A stretch of 64,000 bases of DNA from a virus. Location: IMG/VR virus record IMGVR_UViG_3300044492_000149, positions 5,615 through 69,614 of that record; one strand, given 5' to 3'. The notes beneath the pieces were generated by a model. It did not search any database, had not been told where the DNA came from, and worked only from the letters and a program-made list of their open reading frames with translations. This document shows positions 24,746 through 61,482 of this stretch, in pieces. The number at the start of each line of letters is the position of its first letter. Within the stretch, counting starts at the first letter, position 1. A program made the translations under genes and the position numbers.

Positions 24746-25272
24746 TGGCAACAGGTATTTTTCCAGAAAGCGTTGCCGGCGGTCTTGTCATTCGTGATGC
24801 TGCCGGCAATCCAACTGGCGTACTGAACGTCAACAATGCCTATGTTCCGTCGCCGGCATTTATATCAAGCTGTTTGCTGACGGCGCTGCCGTCGGATTGC
24901 ACGGCGCGCATCGAAGCGCGACAGATCAACGCCATCGTGTCCGAGTTGGTTCATTTTGCTGAATGTCTGGATGCTAACGGACCGTGGAACTGTAACTCGT
25001 TGAACAATCTCTGCGCGGCGTTCGCGCAGTGGGCTTACGTCAACATCATTCCAACGATCATCTCTGACACGCCACCGCCGGTGCCGAAGCACAATCAGTT
25101 CTGGTGGGAGAGCGACACCGGACTGCTTTTCATCTGGTACGACGACGGCAACAGTCAGCAGTGGGTTCAAGTGACACCAGGGCCAGTGGTCGTCGACGGT
25201 GTCTCCATTGTTGGCGGCGGCGTCAAGACCGATCCGCTCAGAGTGGGTCTGGTGGACTGCGGAACCTACTGA
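24745..25272 (+). CDS. Tail fibre-associated protein
   Basis: ISDTPPP...[23 protein letters not shown] module typical of fibres. Confidence 0.6.
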
Positions 25273-28151
25273 TGGGCATTCCACAGATCTTCCCGCTGGC
25301 GCGGCTGAACATTGATCCTGAAACCGGCAAGCCGATTCAGGAAGTGATGTTCACCAACAGCAACGACCAGATGGTCGTTGTCACCGACGGCAAGACGCTG
25401 GTCGGGCGCAGCGAGACTGATCGCGGCACCTCGACTGGGATCAAGATTCAAGAGCCGCTGTTTCTTTCCAACGGCGTGCTCGGCAGCTACGGCGGCACCG
25501 GCGGTGGCGAAGCAGGGCCACCCGGGCCGCCTGGGCCGGCGGGTCCGCAAGGGCCGGCAGGTCCAGCATCGACTGTGCCGGGACCGCCGGGAGCTACTGG
25601 TCCACAGGGTCCGGCGGGACCGACTGGAGCGGCCTCGACTGTGCCCGGGCCACAAGGGCCACAGGGGCCGGTAGGGCCACAGGGCGTCAAGGGTGACACG
25701 GGTGCTGCGTCCACTGTGCCAGGACCAGTCGGGCCGACTGGGCCACAGGGCGCCAAAGGCGACACCGGCGTGCAGGGGCCACAGGGTGTCAAGGGAGATC
25801 AGGGCACGCAGGGTGTCCAGGGGCCAAAAGGCGATCAGGGGGTGGAAGGACCCCAGGGCATCCAAGGCCCTATAGGGCCACAGGGCGCGACGGGCAGCGG
25901 CATTACGATGCAGGGGTCCGTACCTACGGAAGCTGACCTGCCGGCCACCGGCAACGCCCAGGGGGACGCCTACATCGTTCAGGCTGACGACAGTTTGTGG
26001 ATATGGGACAGCTCGGCGTGGGTCTCCGGCGGTTCGATCCAAGGTCCGCCCGGGTCACAGGGTCCACAGGGCACGGTCGGCCCACAAGGTCCGGCTGGTC
26101 CACAGGGCGATCAGGGCATCCAGGGCGCGCAAGGTGTCCAGGGTCCGATCGGCGCCACGGGGGCCGATAGCACGGTGCCAGGACCGGCCGGTCCTGCCGG
26201 ACCGAAGGGCGACACGGGCGCAACAGGTGCGACGGGAGCCGACAGCACTGTTCCTGGGCCGCAAGGTCCGAAAGGTGATCCTGGCACGACAGGAGCTACG
26301 GGTCCGCAAGGACCAGCCGGTGCGACTGGAGCTACTGGTGCAACGGGTCCGCAAGGGCCACAAGGTGTGCCTGGTGTAAACGCCGATCCGAGTCTTTATG
26401 TCGCCAAGGCCGGCGATACGATGACCGGCGGGTTGGGCGTTGTTGGGCAAATCGCTAACCCGCCATCCGCTTCTGGCGTCTATAGCGGCACAGCCAGCAA
26501 CTACGGCCAGATCAAAATTATGGGCCAGACCACCACTGGCTCGATCATCGACTTCATGGAGCCTGGGGACGGGTTAGTTTTCAAAGCGCGCATCATCTAC
26601 ACCGCCTCGATCAGTACGCTTGGCATTTCTGCTCCAAACCTCTCCTTCAGTGGCCCAGCGACCTTCAACAATGCTGTGGCGATGACTGGCAACCTTACTG
26701 TCAGCGGAACGTCTACGCAGACCGGAACAGCATCATTCGCCAATGGTATTTCGCTGGGATCAGTTGCGGTTGCCAGTGGCACCGACCTAAGCAAGCACAT
26801 CAATCTCTATGGCAGCAACAGTTACGGCTTCAGCGTTACTGGCGGAACCCTGAACATTGTCGCCAGCAATGTCCTCGCAGCAACGCTGACTGGCACTCTT
26901 TCCACATTTAATGGAAACATGACTGTCAGCGGGGGAAACCTGACTGTCATCGGTAGCGCAGTCATCCAAGGTGCCCTCAATCTTGGATCAGCCAACGGCC
27001 CGACGCGCGCCCTCTCGTTGGACGGCGCGAACATCTATATGTCGTTTAACACTGCTGGTGCCGAAGGTTTTCTAATCGGCAAGGAGGGCGACAACTCTAC
27101 TGGTCGGTTGCTGATCTATAAGGCTGGCGTCTACACGATGACGATGAGCGCGGCTGGCCATACGGTGTGGTCCGGCAACATGACGGTTAGTGGCAACTTC
27201 AACACTAACCTTATCTCCGGAAGCCAGTTGAATACGACCGGCTATGTCATGCTCGGAAACAGCGATTACGGTCTTCTTTATTTCGGCAACACGGGTGGTC
27301 GTTATCTTCAGTACACAGGCGGCCAACTGAACTATGTCGGGCTTGGCACGCTCAACATGGGCGGCAATGCGATCACCGGCGTTGCTGGGTATAACGGCGG
27401 CGCGATCACTTGCACGACCATCAATACCCAAGGCAACACGATCACCGCTGGGTCGATCAACGGCACCACGCTCTCTGGTGGTACAGTATATATGCCTGAT
27501 GCTAATAACTATCTCGTCAGCGACGGCAGCAACATAATCCTGCGATCCACCGGCGGTATGTTTTTCCAAAGTGTCGGTGGCATCAATGATCGTCCGATTT
27601 ATTGCGGATCGTTTACGACTTACGGCGGCGGTTTTGCTATGGCAGCCTCTGGTGGCGGCATCGCCTCTGATGGTGTGATCCAGACGGCAGCCTACGGCCA
27701 ATGCCCAGGCGGTGGTGCTTGGCGCGACACTTCCGACGAGCGCATCAAAATTGTTCTGGGAGATTACAAGCACGGATTGAGCGAGATCCTGGCCTTGCAG
27801 CCAAAGCGGTATCTGTTCAAGGGCAACGATACAATTAAGCCACCAGCGAATTCATCTGACAAAGCACTGGAGCAGGACGCTTCGGCTCCGGTTCTGCCGT
27901 ACCGCAACTCAAATCATTACGACGCTGCTGTCGCCCAACAAGAATACGTCGGCCTCATTGCGCAAGAAGCCGAAGTGCCGATGCCGGAGCTGGTCACCTA
28001 TCACGAAGGCTACGTTGACGGCGACAAGGTCGAGGATCTTCGCATCCTTGATAATTCGGCCCTGGTCTACGCCCTGGTCAACGCCGTCAAATCGCTGGCT
28101 GCCACCAACACCGCACTGGAAGCCCGCATCGCTGCCTTAGAAGGAGCCTGA
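25272..28151 (+). CDS. Tail fibre with collagen-like repeats and C-terminal S74-type chaperone
   Basis: Long Gly-X-Y tracts; [11 protein letters not shown]; SDERIK...GLIAQE...RIAALE. Confidence 0.88.
25514..26380 (+). repeat. Collagen-like (Gly-X-Y)n coding repeats
   Basis: GPQ/GPA/GAT triplets in two tracts. Confidence 0.85.
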
Positions 28152-54554: not shown

Positions 54555-55919
54555 GTGTGCGGTTGGTTGGCCCAAGCAGGACCGAAATCGAAGACCTTTG
54601 ACAAGGCCCTCGAGAGCCTCAACCATCGGGGCATTCGAAAGAAAGTCATCAGCCACAGCTACGGCACAGTGGGCCATGTCCGCTTGCCGATCGTGGGATT
54701 GTCCACGGCAAACGACCAGCCCGTTCAAAAAGGCAACTGGACGATCGCCTTCGTCGGCGAGATCCTGGACTTCCGCGACAAAGATCCAAAAGCCGAGTGC
54801 GACCTGCCGATCGTCGTGGACCGCTGGATGACGGGCCTGACAGACCACGACGGCTTCTGGAGCATCGTGGCTCTGAAGAATAACGGCACGCTCCACGTGG
54901 TGTGCGATTACCTGGCGCAGAAGCCCACGTACTACCGAGCTGACGTGCGGGCCGCCGCGTCTGAGCTGAACGCCCTGACGATCCTGGCACCGACGCAGCC
55001 TGACGAGGTGTACCTGGCCGCTGTGATCAAGTGGGGCTACTGCCCTGAGGTCGAGCGAACTCCCTACCGCCAGATCAAGCACGTCCTGCCGGGGGAACAC
55101 GTCCGCATCACTCCGTTCGGTTCTGTCCACCGGGAAATCATAGATCCACTTCATCCTGTTAAAGGCGACTTGAAAGCTGAGATCGAGGCGGCAGTCCGCC
55201 GGCGGGTCCTGGCCGCGGATGTGCCCGTGGCTTGTCTTTTGAGCGGGGGTTTGGACAGTTCCATTGTTTACACCCTAGCGCGTCGCCACGGCACCGTCAT
55301 CCCTTACTACGCGGACCTCGGCGACGGCGACGCCATGGAGCACTTCCGGGTGTCCGCTGTCGCGGGCAAGCAAAAAGTAAACGAGGTCCACGGCTCCGTG
55401 GACGTAGACGACGACACCTGCCTGTCGTACCTGCAGGAGCCGATCGACTTAGGATCTTTGCGCCCTCAAATCGCCCTGGCTCGGGCCATCGGGGACAAGC
55501 AAACGGTGTGCCTGACTGGTGACGGCGCAGACGAAGGCTTCGGCGGCTACGGCCGAGCAATGCGGTACGACTCCCAGGGCTCAGACTTGTTCCACGAACT
55601 GCCCGCGTGGCACCTGGTTCGCCTGGACCGAGTGATGATGCGCCACCGGATCGAAGTCCGCAGTCCGTTCCTGGCTCGTCAGGTGGTTCAGATTGCCCTT
55701 GGCCTGCCTTACGAGGAACGGCGCAACAAGAAAATCCTCCGCGATCTATTCCGCGACGACCTGCCGCCGGAGATCGCCGACCAACCTAAAAAACCCCTGC
55801 GGATCGAGGAGGACCGTGAAGAGCGGTCTCAAAATCTGGTCCGCCTGTTTCGACAAAAGGACGCAACATGGCACAGCTTACTTCAATCGGGATCACCTGT
55901 GGCATTGGTAGTCTCCTGA
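54555..55919 (+). CDS. Asparagine synthetase-like glutamine amidotransferase
   Basis: GTG-TGC start giving N-terminal Cys (MCGW); HRG, HVRLPI, QP, LLSGGLDSS, LTGDGADE.FGGY, EVRSPFL. Confidence 0.9.
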   Translation: MCGWLAQAGPKSKTFDKALESLNHRGIRKKVISHSYGTVGHVRLPIVGLSTANDQPVQKGNWTIAFVGEILDFRDKDPKAECDLPIVVDRWMTGLTDHDGFWSIVALKNNGTLHVVCDYLAQKPTYYRADVRAAASELNALTILAPTQPDEVYLAAVIKWGYCPEVERTPYRQIKHVLPGEHVRITPFGSVHREIIDPLHPVKGDLKAEIEAAVRRRVLAADVPVACLLSGGLDSSIVYTLARRHGTVIPYYADLGDGDAMEHFRVSAVAGKQKVNEVHGSVDVDDDTCLSYLQEPIDLGSLRPQIALARAIGDKQTVCLTGDGADEGFGGYGRAMRYDSQGSDLFHELPAWHLVRLDRVMMRHRIEVRSPFLARQVVQIALGLPYEERRNKKILRDLFRDDLPPEIADQPKKPLRIEEDREERSQNLVRLFRQKDATWHSLLQSGSPVALVVS

Positions 55920-57274
55920 TCGGTGCTCGGTCTGCAGGGTTCAAGGTCCTGGGCAACGTCGAGTGGCGGAAGTACTACCACGAGAAAGACTCGGACGGCC
56001 GCAACACTTTCCTGGAGAACTTTCCAGGGGCCGTGTTCCCCCACTCCGTCGAGCAGATGACGGAAGAAGAGTTCCGCCGATTTAGTAATCCCGACCTGGC
56101 CCTCGGCCACCCGGAGTGTGGAGCTTACAGCGCCCTCAGCGGGGCGAATAAGAACTTCAGGGAACGGGCCGCGACCGATCAGTCTGACATTCCTTTGTTC
56201 GTGGAACTGGTGGCAAAGCTGAAGCCCCGCTACTTCGTCATGGACGATCTACCGAAGTCCCTGACCGCGTATCCTATGAAAGAATACGCCGACGGTCTGC
56301 CTGAGTATGACCTTTACCCCGAGTGGGTCTCGAACTGGGGCTACGGCAACGTCCAGAAGAACCGCAAGCGCTTGTTCATGCTGGGCGCTCTGAAGAAAGA
56401 ACGGTGGGTGTTCCGCCCTGGCGAAGCCGAGCACGCGTTGACCGTGGCCGACGTTCTGGGTGACCTGGGCAAGCCGCGGTCGCGATCGAACATGCCGAAC
56501 ATGGACCCGTGCGACCTGTCGGCCGAATGCTTCCGAGCGCTGAACTTAGGCGGTTACCGAAAAAAGAACAGCTGGGGCGACGTCAAGAAGTACTTCGCCG
56601 ACAAGAGGGCTGGCCACACTCTGCAGTACCCCACTAAAGAGGGCCGGCTGGTCAACCGGATCGGCTTCCTCAAGGGGCACTGGGACGGTCCCAGCCATGT
56701 CCTGACCGGCCAGAACGCCACCCTCCATCACTTGCGGTGCGAGCCCTATACCATCCGGGAGCGCGCCCGCATCATGGGCTTCCCCGACGATTTCATCTTT
56801 TATGGCACGATCCTGAACGCCAAAGGCGAGTGGAACCACGACGAGAACAGCCACATGGTCCGGCAGACGGGCAAGGCAATGCCCATACAGTTCGCCGAGT
56901 ACGTGTCCCGGCAGATCGCGGCCCACATAGGGGGCAAGCCGTTTGCGTCGTCAGGCGTACGCCTGCTGCCGGCTAACCCCCACATAGACGAAGCCAAGCA
57001 GTGGTATTGCCAGAACGTGGGCTATGCCGACCAGCCGCAGGCCTGCGGCCAGTGCTGGCTGGCCCGGCGGTGTCAGATCCGTACCCGGAAGTACGGTTTA
57101 CCCCCTGAGGGGGACGTAACTCCGGTCCCATCTAGGGACTTACGCCCTCCGGATTCTAAGTCTGAACCAAAGAAAACACGGACCCCCTCCCAAGTCCTTG
57201 TAAACAAAAAGAAAAAACACGGGTATCCTGATACCCATAAAACTTATCCCCCGCTCACAATAGAGGAATACTAG
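55868..57274 (+). CDS. Divergent C5-cytosine methyltransferase-like protein
   Basis: TCGIG, GHPECGAYS, QKNRKRLF, TIRERARIMGFPDDF, QTGKAMP. Confidence 0.8.
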   Translation: MAQLTSIGITCGIGSLLIGARSAGFKVLGNVEWRKYYHEKDSDGRNTFLENFPGAVFPHSVEQMTEEEFRRFSNPDLALGHPECGAYSALSGANKNFRERAATDQSDIPLFVELVAKLKPRYFVMDDLPKSLTAYPMKEYADGLPEYDLYPEWVSNWGYGNVQKNRKRLFMLGALKKERWVFRPGEAEHALTVADVLGDLGKPRSRSNMPNMDPCDLSAECFRALNLGGYRKKNSWGDVKKYFADKRAGHTLQYPTKEGRLVNRIGFLKGHWDGPSHVLTGQNATLHHLRCEPYTIRERARIMGFPDDFIFYGTILNAKGEWNHDENSHMVRQTGKAMPIQFAEYVSRQIAAHIGGKPFASSGVRLLPANPHIDEAKQWYCQNVGYADQPQACGQCWLARRCQIRTRKYGLPPEGDVTPVPSRDLRPPDSKSEPKKTRTPSQVLVNKKKKHGYPDTHKTYPPLTIEEY

Positions 57275-57276
57275 AA

Positions 57277-58182
57277 ATGTATGGAGAACGAGTCAACCTG
57301 ATCAAGGGCCAAGTGCCCGAGTTTTACCACTGCCGCTGCAAGTACTGCCAGAAGATCCTCGGCGAGCTCTTGCGGCCTGACGGCAGTTACTACAGCCGCT
57401 TGGAGCGGCGGCAATACTATGACCCTTCTGAGTCAGGATCTAAGAACGCTGACGGCAGTAAGAAGCATTCACACATCGCAAAATCTCCTCTTCACGTTTC
57501 TCGCTGGGCGATCCAGCAGTACACCAAACCCGACCAGTGGGTCCTCGACCCAACTTGTGGCGCGGGGACAACAATCGTCGAAGCCGTGACCCAGGGCCGG
57601 AACGCCGCCGGCATGGAGCTGGAGTACGGTGACATCCTGAAGGCGAACATCGCTAAGGCCAAGGAGATCAACAACCTGCCGATTGTCAAGATCGGCAATG
57701 GCGACGCCAGGGAAATCGCCACCTTCCTGGAAAAGGCTAAGGTGCCGCCAGTCCACTTGGTCCTGAACAATCCGCCGTACTCGGGCGACGTGTCCATGCC
57801 CAGCCCAAAGGGGAAGCTCCGCGGCAAGGAACACCGCGACCAGGAAATCACGTTCAAGTACGACAAGACCCTGCCCAATCTCGCTTTCCTGAAAGAGGGC
57901 GAGGAGTACTGGCAGACCATGATGGAGATCTACAAAGCCTGTGTAGGCCACTTGGTCAAGGGTGGTTTCTTAGTTCTTGGCATCAAGGACATGAGCAAGA
58001 ACAAAGAGCCGTTCCTGCTGCACAAGATGTTCTGCGAGCAGATCGAGGACAGCCTGAAACTGAAGTTCGTCGGCACAGCGTTCCTGAAGCACCACCCGGG
58101 CACGCTGCATCTGAATAGCTGCATGAAGCGCCATGGCTTCGAGCCGCCGAAGCATCAGACCATTAGTGTGTTCAAGAAATAA
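57277..58182 (+). CDS. N6/N4 amino-methyltransferase
   Basis: VLDPTCGAGTT motif I and NPPY motif IV. Confidence 0.85.
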   Translation: MYGERVNLIKGQVPEFYHCRCKYCQKILGELLRPDGSYYSRLERRQYYDPSESGSKNADGSKKHSHIAKSPLHVSRWAIQQYTKPDQWVLDPTCGAGTTIVEAVTQGRNAAGMELEYGDILKANIAKAKEINNLPIVKIGNGDAREIATFLEKAKVPPVHLVLNNPPYSGDVSMPSPKGKLRGKEHRDQEITFKYDKTLPNLAFLKEGEEYWQTMMEIYKACVGHLVKGGFLVLGIKDMSKNKEPFLLHKMFCEQIEDSLKLKFVGTAFLKHHPGTLHLNSCMKRHGFEPPKHQTISVFKK

Positions 58183-58258
58183 TACTAGTATACACGGCTG
58201 AAGTTTTGTAGTTTATCTGTTGTACCGGCAATCACCGGAAAACAGAGGAACGAAAACG

Positions 58259-58900
58259 ATGCTGACGAAGACAAAAGAAGAGCCGAAGACGATCTTGACC
58301 ATTAGCCCGCCGAACTTTCAGCTGGCTAAGGTCAAGATCATTGGCACTGCCCCCCTGGTCATGAACAAAATGTCCAGCGCAAACCGGCAGAAGATGATCG
58401 ACGACATGATGGCCGGTAGTCGTACCAAGAAAGGTACCGCCCGGCCGCCTAAAGACTTCGACGCTGTCTATAAAGGCGCGATGCACATCAGCGAAACGGG
58501 CCAGTATGGCATTCCGGCTTCAGCCCTGCGGACGGGCATGATCGACGGCTGCCGCCTGGTCGGTTTCAAGATGACGATCGCGAAGCTCAGCGTCTTCGTC
58601 GAGGCCGATGGTTTCGACACCGACGACGGCCAACCTCTCGTGCATCTCACTGTTGGTTCTCCGGTTCGCCGGGACATGGCTGTGAAGCTGGCGAACGGTT
58701 CGACTGATATCCTGGCACGGCCATTCTTCATGCCGTGGGAGTGCGAGCCGACCTTGCGTTGGGACGGTGACCAGTTCAACGCTCAGGACGTCATCAACTT
58801 GCTCGCTCGCGTTGGCGGTCAAGTTGGCATCGGCGCTGGACGGCCCAATAGTAAAATGAGCACAGGTATGGGCTGGGGTACTTTCCGCGTCGAGTCCTGA
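58259..58900 (+). CDS. Stand-alone RAMP / Cas7-like protein
   Basis: IIGTAPLVMN first strand, GIPASALR, C-terminal G-rich loop GIGAGRP...GMGWGTFRV; GAGG RBS. Confidence 0.75.
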   Translation: MLTKTKEEPKTILTISPPNFQLAKVKIIGTAPLVMNKMSSANRQKMIDDMMAGSRTKKGTARPPKDFDAVYKGAMHISETGQYGIPASALRTGMIDGCRLVGFKMTIAKLSVFVEADGFDTDDGQPLVHLTVGSPVRRDMAVKLANGSTDILARPFFMPWECEPTLRWDGDQFNAQDVINLLARVGGQVGIGAGRPNSKMSTGMGWGTFRVES

Positions 58901-58904
58901 ACCT

Positions 58905-59175
58905 AGCAGGCCAAGCATAGCGCAGTAATGCACAGACCAGCTTAGTCAAGTATAGCGCAGTCGAAGCAGGCTTAGTTTAGCAGATCGGAGCATAGAATAG
59001 CAGAGCCCCGCAAAGTTTAGCCGAGTCAAAGCAGGCGGAGCTAGGCAGAGCGTAGTTCAGCTTAGTCCAGCACAGATTAACGTAGCAAAGTCGAAGCAGG
59101 CGAAGCTTAGCTCAGCGCAGCGAAGCGGAGATCAGCGTAGTTTAGCACAGCATAGCCCAGTCAAAGCAGGCAAAG
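58905..59175 (+). repeat. Pentamer-periodic array 1 (AGY-NN)n, four units; candidate guide ncRNA
   Basis: 53 pentamers in unbroken register 58909-59173; junction AGTCR-AAGCA-GGC; units 60, 65, 65, 70 nt. Confidence 0.9.
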
Positions 59176-59184
59176 GAGACTAAA

Positions 59185-59643
59185 GTGAGCATCAAGGAAG
59201 AGTTACTAGCGTTGCGGGAGGCCCAAGGCGGCATCCTGCGGGTCGAGCCGGTGGTCGAGTGGGCGCAAGCCCACCCGACTTCGGATCTTCACAAGTCCCT
59301 GGAATGGGACGATGAGAAAGCGGGCTTCGAGTGGCGGTGCCACCAAGTCCGCCGGCTGATCGCTGTCCACGTCGTGAACGAGGAAGGCGAGCGGCAGATG
59401 GTAAGCCTGACTATCGACCGGGTGAGACCGGGCGGTGGCTATCGGGACATTCAAGACGTCGGCTCTGTCCCTAACCTGCGGGAAGTCATGCTGGGGGATG
59501 CTCTCGACGAATTGGAGCGGGTTCAGGCCCGCTACAATCACCTGCAGGAGCTTGTCCAGATCTGGGAAGCCGCTGATCAAGTCCGCCAGCGTCATCCTCG
59601 TAGGCACCGTCGCGGCCGGCCGGAGAACCGATCGACGGCCTGA
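59185..59643 (+). CDS. Hypothetical protein between the two arrays
   Basis: AAGGAG RBS; LHKSLEWDDEKAG.EWR.HQVRRLI motif. Confidence 0.8.
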   Translation: MSIKEELLALREAQGGILRVEPVVEWAQAHPTSDLHKSLEWDDEKAGFEWRCHQVRRLIAVHVVNEEGERQMVSLTIDRVRPGGGYRDIQDVGSVPNLREVMLGDALDELERVQARYNHLQELVQIWEAADQVRQRHPRRHRRGRPENRSTA

Positions 59644-59897
59644 AGTCGAAACAGGCGGAGCTAAGTCGAGTTCAGCTTAGCGCAGACAAGTGATGTTTAG
59701 CAGAGTCGAAGCAGGCGGAGCTAAGTCGAGTTCAGCAAAGCAAAGTCGAAGCAAAGCAGGCCGAGCACAGCCAAGCGTGGAAGAGCACAGTGCGGTGAAG
59801 TTAAGTCGAAGCAAAGCAGGCAAAGCCCAGTGCGCAGAGTGGAGCAAGCTAAGCCATGCCCAGCCCGGCCCAGTCGAAGCAAAGCAGGTAAAGCGTG
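59644..59897 (+). repeat. Pentamer-periodic array 2 (AGY-NN)n, four units; candidate guide ncRNA
   Basis: Same junction (AAGCA doubled in the last three); units 60, 45, 60, 68 nt. Confidence 0.88.
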
Positions 59898-60263
59898 AAA
59901 TGGATTGTTGGAACTGATGACCCGACCGGCCGCGGCGACGCGTTCCCTCCGAACACGAAGGGGACGGGCCGCCGCCTGCTGGCCTTGAGCGGGCTGTCCG
60001 CAGACGAATACACGGCGACGTTCTTCAGAACCAACACCGAAGAGGAACCGGTCTTTCGCGGGGGCGACACCGTCGTCGTTCTGGGGCGCGTCGCCTGGCG
60101 TCACCTCCGCCTGCCGTCCCGTCATCCGTGGTTTACTTCAACGGTCAAAAATAGAACTACATACTGGTTAATTCCCCACCCGTCGGGAAAAAACCTGATG
60201 TACAATAGCCTGCAGGTAAGACGCAAGACGCAGCGTCTGATGCGGTCTCTGTCACGGAGGTAG
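59895..60263 (+). CDS. Minimal uracil-DNA glycosylase-like protein
   Basis: TGRRL, VVVLGRVAW, LIPHPSGKN..YN. Confidence 0.6.
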   Translation: MKWIVGTDDPTGRGDAFPPNTKGTGRRLLALSGLSADEYTATFFRTNTEEEPVFRGGDTVVVLGRVAWRHLRLPSRHPWFTSTVKNRTTYWLIPHPSGKNLMYNSLQVRRKTQRLMRSLSRR

Positions 60264-60646
60264 TGATGGAAATAGATCCGATTTGGCGAACGCAGTTCCA
60301 GGGCGGCCAACCAAAGGAGAGGAAAACAGTGAAGAAAATCCCCTGTCGTATATCTGTAGGCCACCACCCCCCTGGATATAGCAAACAACGAAACTGTCAG
60401 ATGATCGCTATCCATGTCCCGTCTTTTGTAGGAGTCTATGACACCGTGTGGCTTTACCACACGAAAGATCGGGGGATGATCGTAGTTAAACCGCGGGTCG
60501 GATTTACTAAGCACAAAGTGCAGAAGAAAAAGGGCCGAATCACCCACAACTCCCGACTTAAGTTGGGAGAATTAAAAAAATGCGGACTCACAGACACATT
60601 CCTGGTTCAAAACGGGGATGAGTACGTTTTCGAGTTCCCCAAATGA
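60263..60646 (+). CDS. Basic hypothetical protein
   Basis: GGAGG RBS; AT-rich ORF overlapping the next start. Confidence 0.5.
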   Translation: MMEIDPIWRTQFQGGQPKERKTVKKIPCRISVGHHPPGYSKQRNCQMIAIHVPSFVGVYDTVWLYHTKDRGMIVVKPRVGFTKHKVQKKKGRITHNSRLKLGELKKCGLTDTFLVQNGDEYVFEFPK

Positions 60647-61482
60647 TCTACGTGACAGACACACCGTCGTTTGAAGCCGTGCGGCAGGATCTCCGGCGGG
60701 CGTTTCGGACAGCGCCGCGCGTTGCCACTGAACGGTGGCAGGGGCTCGATGTCAGCCAGAACCCTGCCGCCGTGTCGTACGAGCTGAGGAACGTGGAGTT
60801 CGAAGTATCCCTCGGCGGGTTCGAGGACCTCGACCACTGGCGGCAGGACATTCAGCCGAACCTGCCCTGGGCCGATGATCACTTCCTGGAGCGCGTGGGC
60901 GGCGAGCCCCTGAACCCAGGGAGGGAGTGGGCCAACTGGCCCTGGGCCGGCAGCGCTGCCCGGTTCAAGGAGACCCACTTCAACCACACTTACATGGAGC
61001 GTCTGTGGCCTAAGTTCGCCCGCCGGTCCGGCGGCGGCACCCTGCCGGAGAAGGGCCGGTTGAGGAAGTACCCTGCCGGCGACAAGCGGCCTAAGTACGG
61101 CGTCGCTTATTACTGGGGCGACCTCGAAGATTTGGTCGAGATGCTGGCCAAAGAGCCGCACACCCGGCAGGGGTTCATCCCGCTGTTCTTTCCTGAGGAC
61201 ACGGGCGTCGGCGACGGCGGCCGCAAACCGTGCACCTTAGGATACCAGGTCATGGTCCGCGACGGCGAAGCCCACATGTGGTACCCCTTGCGGTCCTGCG
61301 ACTTCGTCCGTCACTGGGCCGACGATTGCTACCTGGCCGTGCGGCTGCTCCTGTGGATCATCGACCGCTGCCGAGAAATCAACGGAGATGATTGGCTATC
61401 AATCCGACCCGGTAGCCTGGCCATGCACTGCACTAGTCTGCACATTTTCGAAAATGACAGACGGGAGTTGCTGAAATCGTGA
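60643..61482 (+). CDS. Thymidylate synthase-family enzyme (dCMP hydroxymethylase-like)
   Basis: TRQ, PCTLGYQ, RSCD, SLHIF motifs. Confidence 0.85.
   Translation: MIYVTDTPSFEAVRQDLRRAFRTAPRVATERWQGLDVSQNPAAVSYELRNVEFEVSLGGFEDLDHWRQDIQPNLPWADDHFLERVGGEPLNPGREWANWPWAGSAARFKETHFNHTYMERLWPKFARRSGGGTLPEKGRLRKYPAGDKRPKYGVAYYWGDLEDLVEMLAKEPHTRQGFIPLFFPEDTGVGDGGRKPCTLGYQVMVRDGEAHMWYPLRSCDFVRHWADDCYLAVRLLLWIIDRCREINGDDWLSIRPGSLAMHCTSLHIFENDRRELLKS

Follow-up and report, generated by a model that had tools for sequence, protein, structure and literature searches.

A two-gene cassette with two pentamer arrays

The window, by which we mean the whole 64,000-nt stretch of DNA analysed here, corresponds to positions 5615-69614 of an IMG/VR virus record (IMGVR_UViG_3300044492_000149) that is 69.6 kb long and rated 99% complete. 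The stretch was found, whole or in part, in 20 of 22 listed public runs (14 studies, mostly labelled soil metagenome), none of the listed runs that contain it is recorded as RNA, and contigs of four soil runs were identical to the window across the parts of the arrays that they covered. The region of interest lies between two DNA methylase genes and a thymidylate-synthase-like gene and contains the following features:

55868-57274: C5 DNA methylase (Pfam search)
57277..58182, + strand: the phage's own N6/N4 DNA methyltransferase (Pfam PF01555, E = 6.5e-14)
58259..58900, + strand: vipr, encoding a 213-aa Vipr protein, predicted to be RAMP-like; the ORF is open from TTG at 58220
58904..59173, + strand: putative vrRNA array 1, with leader junction TAGCAGGC, four units and a final GGCAA that merges into the RBS
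58909-58968, 58969-59033, 59034-59098 and 59099-59168, + strand: the units of array 1 (60, 65, 65 and 70 nt)
58909..58958, + strand: guide 1 (array 1 unit 1, 10 NN), matching HIAKTPLHIA codons in a family of phage DNA methylases
59185..59643, + strand: accessory gene in the vap position, 152 aa with an EWDD motif (PHROG 15946, E = 2.3e-10)
59644..59890, + strand: putative vrRNA array 2, with junction AGTCGAAGCAAAGCAGGC
59654-59713, 59714-59758, 59759-59818 and 59819-59886, + strand: the units of array 2, the second short and the fourth degenerate
59895-60646: two small ORFs
60643-61482: thymidylate-synthase-like gene

Pfam named only the two upstream methylases and returned no family for the five unnamed ORFs beside the arrays (58220-61482). 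Neither an Rfam family nor a tRNA was found anywhere in the window.

Array 1 is a series of pentamers in a single register

Array 1 begins 5 nt past the vipr stop codon and stops at the RBS of the accessory gene. An initial annotation of this DNA, made from its letters and open reading frames, had the array running directly into an AAGGAG RBS, and this motif is indeed present at 59173-59178, followed by the GTG start of the accessory gene at 59185. Composition modulo 5 revealed 52 pentamers in one register (58909-59168), in which position 1 is A in 45/52, position 2 is G in 46/52, and position 3 is C in 32/52 and T in 12/52. Per-position entropies across these 52 pentamers were 0.72, 0.59, 1.49, 1.99 and 1.97 bits, such that the first two positions of the trinucleotide are conserved at 87-88% and the last two positions of the pentamer are near random. 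As the array contains no internal indel, the earlier description of variation confined to two of five positions, with no insertions or deletions, holds. Its GGC unit starts (58909, 58969, 59034, 59099 and 59169) and its four NN strings for array 1 are likewise exact. Its pentamer counts were too high: 35 of the 44 internal pentamers begin with AG and 31 with AGY, and the 39 and 35 that had been given apply to 48 pentamers, including the four AGTCR.

Every unit of array 1 has the same anatomy, consisting of a GGC start, a run of xGY/NN guide pentamers (10, 11, 11 and 12 in the four units) and a constant end, AGTCR-A-AGCAG. The units differ from one another at every NN. The 13-mer junction that closes the units, AGTCRAAGCAGGC, occurs five times in the phage genome, always on the + strand, and a reversed-pattern control for it gave no match across the same genome. 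The base added after AGTCR cancels a -1 register shift that is seen in related phages (described below), and because of it the unit lengths of array 1 are exact multiples of 5. The proposal that all unit lengths are multiples of 5 therefore describes array 1 well but does not extend to array 2, which has a 68-nt unit, or to the closest relatives, in which 24 of 32 units have a length of 5k+4.

The periodicity of array 1 far exceeds what chance would give. Of the dinucleotides in the window, 5.9% are AG, and a scan of the whole window for AG at 8 or more of 12 successive steps of 5 nt identified two regions only, 58899-59193 (12/12) and 59634-59793 (9/12), both on the + strand and none on the - strand. 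Dinucleotides other than AG reached a maximum of 6/12 or less at 5-nt steps, except for GC, whose peak of 10/12 lies inside array 1. Folding of the array was no better than that of shuffled sequences (z = 0.12 on the + strand and 1.30 on the - strand), and the + strand holds no ORF of at least 30 aa inside 58901-59184. Cutting at the junctions of array 1 would also be expected to split the vipr message from that of the accessory gene.

Several familiar classes of repeat were considered for this locus and rejected. In ToxI-like arrays of type III toxin-antitoxin systems, tandem RNA repeats that are nearly identical precede the gene of an endoribonuclease toxin; here the units differ at every NN, and the protein encoded downstream has no match in PADLOC, Pfam or NCBIfam. 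A CRISPR array was discarded since a tandem-repeat scan gave only fragments of period 10-20 and the junction is 13 nt, not a repeat of 25-40 nt. G-quadruplexes were ruled out because AG cannot form them.

Array 2 contains a partial duplicate and a degenerate unit

The units of array 2 are less regular. Unit 2 opens with the same four pentamers as unit 1 and ends after 6 NN, making it a partial duplicate, and the unit at 59819-59886 is degenerate and 68 nt long, hence not a multiple of 5. Three units across both arrays open with GGCGG AGCTA, namely those starting at 59034 (array 1 unit 3), 59654 and 59714 (array 2 units 1 and 2). Together with the partial copy, these common starts suggest that guide units arise by duplication. 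In one low-depth soil contig, array 2 (from 59643) is joined to a different upstream sequence that resembles AGY pentamers; this contig may represent a variant arrangement of the array in another sample.

The gene upstream of array 1 encodes a homolog of SUSP1 Vipr

Preprints from 2026 describe VIPR (Viral Interference Programmable Repeat), a form of RNA-guided DNA silencing that combines a small Vipr protein of RAMP lineage with an accessory vap gene (bioRxiv 10.64898/2026.04.26.720920). As presented there, vrRNAs carry 9-16 YNNGG repeats in which GGY is constant and NN hypervariable, the NN bases read double-stranded DNA with one target base skipped per repeat, the Vipr complex silences transcription, and the natural targets are competing phages and satellites (10.64898/2026.04.26.720920). 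In Escherichia phage SUSP1, which together with a Pseudomonas fulva prophage represents type II VIPR (10.64898/2026.04.26.720920, 10.64898/2026.04.26.720927), disrupted NN pairing abolished silencing, and the main text and the legend of fig. S12B list GGY-to-AGY guides among the changes with the same effect (10.64898/2026.04.26.720920). Each repeat is bound by a single Vipr protomer; in SUSP1, H17 and D177 read G1, R138 and W178 read G2, and the Y3 pocket excludes purines (10.64898/2026.04.26.720927).

Profile alignment showed full-length homology between the 213-aa protein of the window and SUSP1 Vipr, whose structure is solved. Profile A1, built from 42 homologs, aligned to SUSP1 Vipr with an hhalign probability of 94.85% (E = 4.8e-8, 170 columns), pairing residues 24-213 of the window protein with residues 5-193 of SUSP1, and the same profile hit PDB chain 36pp_D, 'SUSP1 Vipr protein', at E = 8.3e-5 (hmmsearch). 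On the strength of this homology, the window protein would adopt a RAMP fold. It belongs to PHROG 4652, which has no known function, and has 4578 homologs in a large protein collection; those encoded in GTDB genomes come from many phyla and are at most 54% identical to it.

Residues that contact the repeat in SUSP1 are retained in part. R138 of the SUSP1 thumb, which contacts G2, corresponds to the invariant R154 of the window protein, R179 corresponds to R195, and H17 to the invariant N36. The G-loop reads GIGAGRP in the window protein and GVGDWRP in SUSP1, such that A193 and G194 stand in place of D177 and W178, with an insert of 8 residues and GWG after them. A loop rich in glycine, GIGAGRPNSKMSTGMGWG, is visible in the C-terminal sequence. 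These residue correspondences and the insert, as placed by the hhalign alignment, clearly point to a subfamily distinct from that of SUSP1.

Compared with SUSP1 vap1, the only vap examined, the accessory protein is not similar (hhalign probability 0.25%), and it has no match in Pfam, NCBIfam or PADLOC and no named family. Its relatives nonetheless adjoin vipr at three other loci (L006, L008 and L010) and in the named phage Cy-LDV1, and its neighbours in Atlas are viral hypothetical proteins.

AGY loci form one clade among mostly GGY relatives

We gathered 128 loci encoding Vipr homologs from IMG/VR, from GTDB genomes of many phyla and from Cy-LDV1. Of the 86 IMG/VR loci L006-L091, 71 have xGY/NN arrays on the same strand as vipr and 4 have them on the opposite strand. 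The loci found with the 152-aa protein have the same gene pair beside GGCNN pentamer arrays that are punctuated by GGCAGGC. In a census of repeat types restricted to the 103 loci with at least 20 scorable pentamers, GGY accounted for 93, AGY for 4, CGY for 3 and mixed types for 3.

The layout of Cy-LDV1 is that of the window: vipr, array, EWDD gene, array. The phage carries a complete, unannotated VIPR-like locus (L011 = BK059895.1, 2983-4590), in which g34 encodes a Vipr 55% identical to that of the window and is followed by a GGC array, g33 carries the EWDD motif, and a second array lies ahead of the excisionase gene. Its GC content is high, which looks odd for a Cylindrospermopsis phage. 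Other loci vary in the constant trinucleotide: the first base of the pentamers is mostly C in L055 (28/41) and in L087 and L088 (42/54 each), and Y is nearly always T in L041 (27/32), L077 (52/58) and L125 (31/35). A Vipr homolog of 26-30% identity, annotated as hypothetical protein, is also present in 25 Mycobacterium and 5 Gordonia phage records (for example NC_051648.1, 37334-37963, and NC_031249.1, 32735-33319).

The AGY loci are the window and three others (L012, L013 and L015) whose Vipr proteins, at 81%, 77% and 58% identity, are the most similar of those with scorable arrays. In a quick tree, the four form one branch nested among GGY rows (SH-aLRT 94). Two residues separate them from their GGY relatives: at residue 38 the AGY clade has M where 75/77 GGY relatives have F, and at residue 143 it has K where 74/77 have R. 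The M38/K143 pair occurs in 27 of 42 aligned Vipr homologs, a set that includes the window protein; it is present in all 22 of the most similar homologs (84-58% identity in the same alignment) and mixed with F/R below about 62%. Based on these sequences, the M38/K143 clade is probably common in soil data. Residue 38 is a reasonable candidate for a change in the pocket because it lies two positions after N36, which aligns with the G1-reading H17, although this is a correlation within a single clade. K143 was ruled out as an AGY-diagnostic residue, as the GGY-reading SUSP1 also has K at this position. Since GGY-to-AGY guides abolished silencing in SUSP1, the protein of the window's clade should read A; we infer that Vipr of the AGY clade does so and that an AGY array would work only in that case.

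Within this clade, the scaffold is kept and the guides are exchanged. Units of L012 and L013 end in AGCAA-AGCAG and the next unit opens at the last G (AGCAG|GC), which creates a 1-nt overlap and a register shift of -1; the 5k+4 unit lengths of the three closest relatives were noted above, and GGY relatives have the same overlap with GGCAG|GC. A comparison of 39 units from the four AGY phages, 7 of them from the window, identified no window of 5 NN common between phages, while the trinucleotide and the junction are kept. The expectation that related phages would preserve AGY and swap NN is thus borne out by three relatives. The selection on register that had been proposed is supported and agrees with the published mechanism (10.64898/2026.04.26.720920), but the register is kept within units and not across them, where the relatives shift by -1 at AGCAG|GC.

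Guide 1 matches the methylase gene of a distant phage

We searched for targets by reading each unit as NNxNNx... and requiring exact matches, so that guide 1 comprises 20 fixed bases; collection searches were exact-only and pass over targets of 80-95%. Guide 1 matched 20/20 at skip 1 in four contigs. Two of these, L136 and L137, are IMG/VR contigs with identical sequence around the site, and a third, the metagenome contig L143, is a twin of the IMG/VR contigs with the same site sequence and a length close to that of L137's contig. The fourth (L142) is a 1.4-kb contig of 33.9% GC in which 7/9 of the skipped bases differ. Each match falls in frame on H-I-A-K-T-P-L-H-I-A, ten codons in the gene of an N6/N4 DNA methylase, and the skipped base is codon position 3, the wobble position. 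One guide can thereby fit gene versions of 58% GC and of 34% GC. In L137, the codon that follows, CGT, also fits the CG of the constant AGTCG pentamer.

The match is specific to the spacing. Across the whole 67-kb target contig, guide 1 scored 20/20 at skip 1 and 14/20 at each of skips 0, 2 and 3, and 200 guides with shuffled NN order reached a maximum of 16 on the same contig. A cross-search that took 1618 nine-NN windows out of 134 records and compared them with 0.78 Mb gave matches at skip 1 only, all of them from guide 1, and none at skips 0 and 2. Guide 1 fits the methylase motif under the 1-nt-skip rule only. The initial annotation had proposed that NN carries information and that each unit should be searched for a gapped target. 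Such a search matched unit 1 perfectly, with a gap of 1 nt and not of 3, as skips 0, 2 and 3 stay at background. The in-frame 20/20 target also agrees with the published mechanism, in which NN is the part that reads DNA (10.64898/2026.04.26.720920).

A target was found for one of the six guides tested. Exact NNx searches with array 1 units 2, 3 and 4 and array 2 units 1 and 3 (18-24 fixed bases) gave no match in IMG/VR, and because these five patterns returned nothing from the same collection, chance matches must be rare. Unit 4 gave no exact match in metagenome contigs and, with up to 3 mismatches allowed, nothing in 50 related virus records; at the same tolerance, unit 2 gave nothing in the target phage's two records.

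The target gene (L137, 7326-8222) encodes a protein 50.6% identical to the phage's own methylase. Its phage is distant and partly syntenic, with 19,263 of 67,227 bases under tblastx hits at ~45% amino-acid identity and a similar GC content. Its 67,227 bases contain no vipr, no accessory gene and no array. From these sequence matches, the methylase genes of rival phages are a well-supported predicted target of guide 1.

The 5-nt period of the arrays, a triplet plus a 2-nt spacer, and their 11-13 repeats per unit resemble TRAP sites. RNA structure no better than that of shuffles would also suit a track of RNA or single strand that lacks structure and is bound by some other oligomer, such as a TRAP-like ring on NAG triplets. 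An element acting as DNA, be it an origin, iterons or clustered primase sites, can be considered alongside it. We nevertheless regard such explanations as extremely unlikely: the neighbouring protein is a Vipr homolog, arrays accompany vipr across many bacterial phyla and phages, mostly on the same strand, and none of these models predicts variable bases that spell a gapped match to a gene. The TRAP-like track and the primase-site cluster were dropped in light of the Vipr homology and the VIPR papers.

The phage's own methylase is an outlier at the targeted motif

Within the genome of the phage itself, guide 1 has its best skip-1 site in the phage's own methylase (57472-57500, peptide HIAKSPLHVS). 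The motif HIAKTPLHIA is present in 75 of the best 120 methylase homologs; among the same 120, HIAKSPLHVS occurs in the phage's own protein alone, and this protein is the least guide-compatible, fitting the guide at 7/10 codons. Relative to the consensus it carries T>S, I>V and A>S together with a change of Leu codon family, and this Leu switch is one of four mismatches among the 20 bases read. We read the divergence of the own copy as possible avoidance of self-targeting while the guide is aimed at the most conserved motif of the family, with the caveat that the own site, at 16/20, sits exactly at the 80% published as a cut-off for target calling and self-avoidance is not clear-cut. Lower self-match scores reported for some guides of the SUSP1 family provide a parallel case (10.64898/2026.10.15.759431).

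The same site raises the idea that guide 1 regulates the phage's own methylase via the 16/20 match instead of attacking rivals. It is the best skip-1 site in the genome, it reaches the published 80% threshold, and its gene is directly upstream of vipr. However, the perfect match is to the consensus motif found in 75/120 homologs, from which the own copy departs as an outlier; shuffled guides reach up to 17 in a genome of such size; and disrupted NN pairing abolished silencing in SUSP1 (10.64898/2026.04.26.720920). We thus consider regulation of the own gene very unlikely and favor rival phages as the target.

Comparison with described systems

Several properties align the locus with type II VIPR. 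It is carried by a phage, its small Vipr is homologous over the whole length, and its two-gene operon is flanked by same-strand arrays whose pentamers combine a constant trinucleotide with a variable NN. Units hold 10-12 guide repeats here and vrRNAs 9-16 in the published description, and the target fits a 1-nt skip at the wobble position, with no self-target above 80%. The repeat is AGY here and GGY there, a departure from the canonical trinucleotide that does not rule out membership, given the 'related consensus' noted below. It also departs from SUSP1 in detail: SUSP1 has a 3' tail of ~40 nt with a pseudoknot whereas the units of the window abut without a tail; the G-loop has D177/W178 in SUSP1 and A193/G194 plus the 8-residue insert and GWG in the window; and the accessory protein is unrelated to vap1. 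The order here is vipr - array - vap - array, while NC_028808.2 suggests vrRNA - vipr - vap1 - three vrRNAs for SUSP1.

Closer parallels to the array itself are mentioned in the VIPR preprints. The legend of fig. S18 in 10.64898/2026.04.26.720920 refers to 'staggered' vrRNA arrays with a 1-nt overlap; the units of the window's relatives are likewise tail-less and share one G, and array 1 differs in the extra base (AGTCR-A) that cancels the -1 shift. The VIPR papers allow 'a related consensus' to GGY, and non-canonical motifs include GAC/NN, CAC/NN, WGT/NN and TGH/NN, with 21 non-canonical clusters (10.64898/2026.10.21.760802), as well as NNNGG, YNNNG and NNNNG, given in the Methods of 10.64898/2026.04.26.720920. 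These resemble the present case in being Vipr-linked 5-nt arrays whose constant part is not GGY, and WGT/NN and YNNNG each cover part of it. In the window, however, the A itself is conserved (45/52) and C predominates over T at Y (32 against 12), hence AGY/NN. Neither AGY nor AGC appears in the text of 10.64898/2026.10.21.760802, although the motif may be in its fig. S10A or supplements.

The VIPR papers further draw a likeness to Cas7 and crRNA of Class 1 CRISPR, in which a RAMP-type protein also polymerises on a guide RNA and bases are flipped at a fixed period. The period is 5 with three bases hidden in VIPR and 6 with one hidden in CRISPR, and the window has no repeat-spacer array, cas genes or adaptation module.

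A probable VIPR locus with an AGY repeat

Taken together, we consider it very likely that the pentamer locus is the VIPR locus of a 69.6-kb soil phage, of an AGY variant, with guide 1 directed against the methylase of a related phage that lacks VIPR. By homology and the published mechanism, vipr, array 1, the accessory gene and array 2 would be transcribed on the + strand, and cutting of the arrays at the constant junction, (AGTCR)AAGCAG|GC, would yield guide RNAs 12-14 pentamers long. Each pentamer would be bound by one Vipr protomer, which would bury the trinucleotide and present the two variable bases; these would pair with double-stranded DNA while every third target base is skipped, and the bound complex would silence transcription. 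The likely role is interference with competing phages.

An alternative is that the locus is inactive or decaying, AGY being a drifted form that Vipr does not read and the arrays being relics. The failure of GGY-to-AGY guides in SUSP1 (10.64898/2026.04.26.720920) would be in keeping with this, as would the 6-NN unit and the 68-nt degenerate unit of array 2 and the five guides that lack a found target. On the other hand, AGY is kept in four phages (Vipr 58-81% identical) although all of their guides differ, array 1 is free of indels across 52 pentamers with positions 1-2 conserved at 87-88%, guide 1 has a perfect in-frame target, and with the M38/K143 pair in 27/42 aligned homologs the clade is not rare. 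Weighing these points, decay is improbable. Judged by its sequence, the locus appears functional, distinguished by its AGY repeat and by tail-less, abutting guides, and it is of a kind already published in 2026.

We lean somewhat towards a more specific account, in which the repeat specificity of a Vipr clade of soil phages has shifted from GGY to AGY, so that a guide scaffold orthogonal to the characterised one exists in nature. F-to-M at residue 38 would be the candidate change in the pocket, one of the tail-less abutting guides would be aimed at the most conserved methylase motif of rivals without VIPR, and the carrier would have recoded its own copy to stay immune. As the tested VIPR members read GGY, an AGY-reading clade, if true, would show how the trinucleotide pocket evolves and would offer a second scaffold for guides, one expected to be free of cross-talk with GGY systems. 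With the predicted target, a soil phage provides a case beyond Enterobacteria and Pseudomonas, and with the own allele being the family outlier at the motif, self/non-self discrimination by allele recoding becomes directly testable. The logic of VIPR was in this instance recovered from reading the sequence alone.

Other features of the window

The interval between the conserved methylase and the thymidylate-synthase-like gene (58183-60642) is made up of the 2.4-kb VIPR cassette and two small ORFs. Over one of these, ORF 60263-60646 (127 aa), the GC content falls to 48-49% (60150-60600) compared to about 58-62% around it; the ORF has no match in Pfam, PHROGs or PADLOC. The same slot in the target phage (L137, 8223-8814) holds a single unrelated 166-aa ORF, and is thus variable. 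Elsewhere, the tandem-repeat finder reported several tracts of 9-nt period (CAGGGCCGC and similar) at 25513-26127, inside a 1015-aa ORF (25104-28151); these tracts may code for collagen-like Gly-X-Y repeats in a tail fibre.
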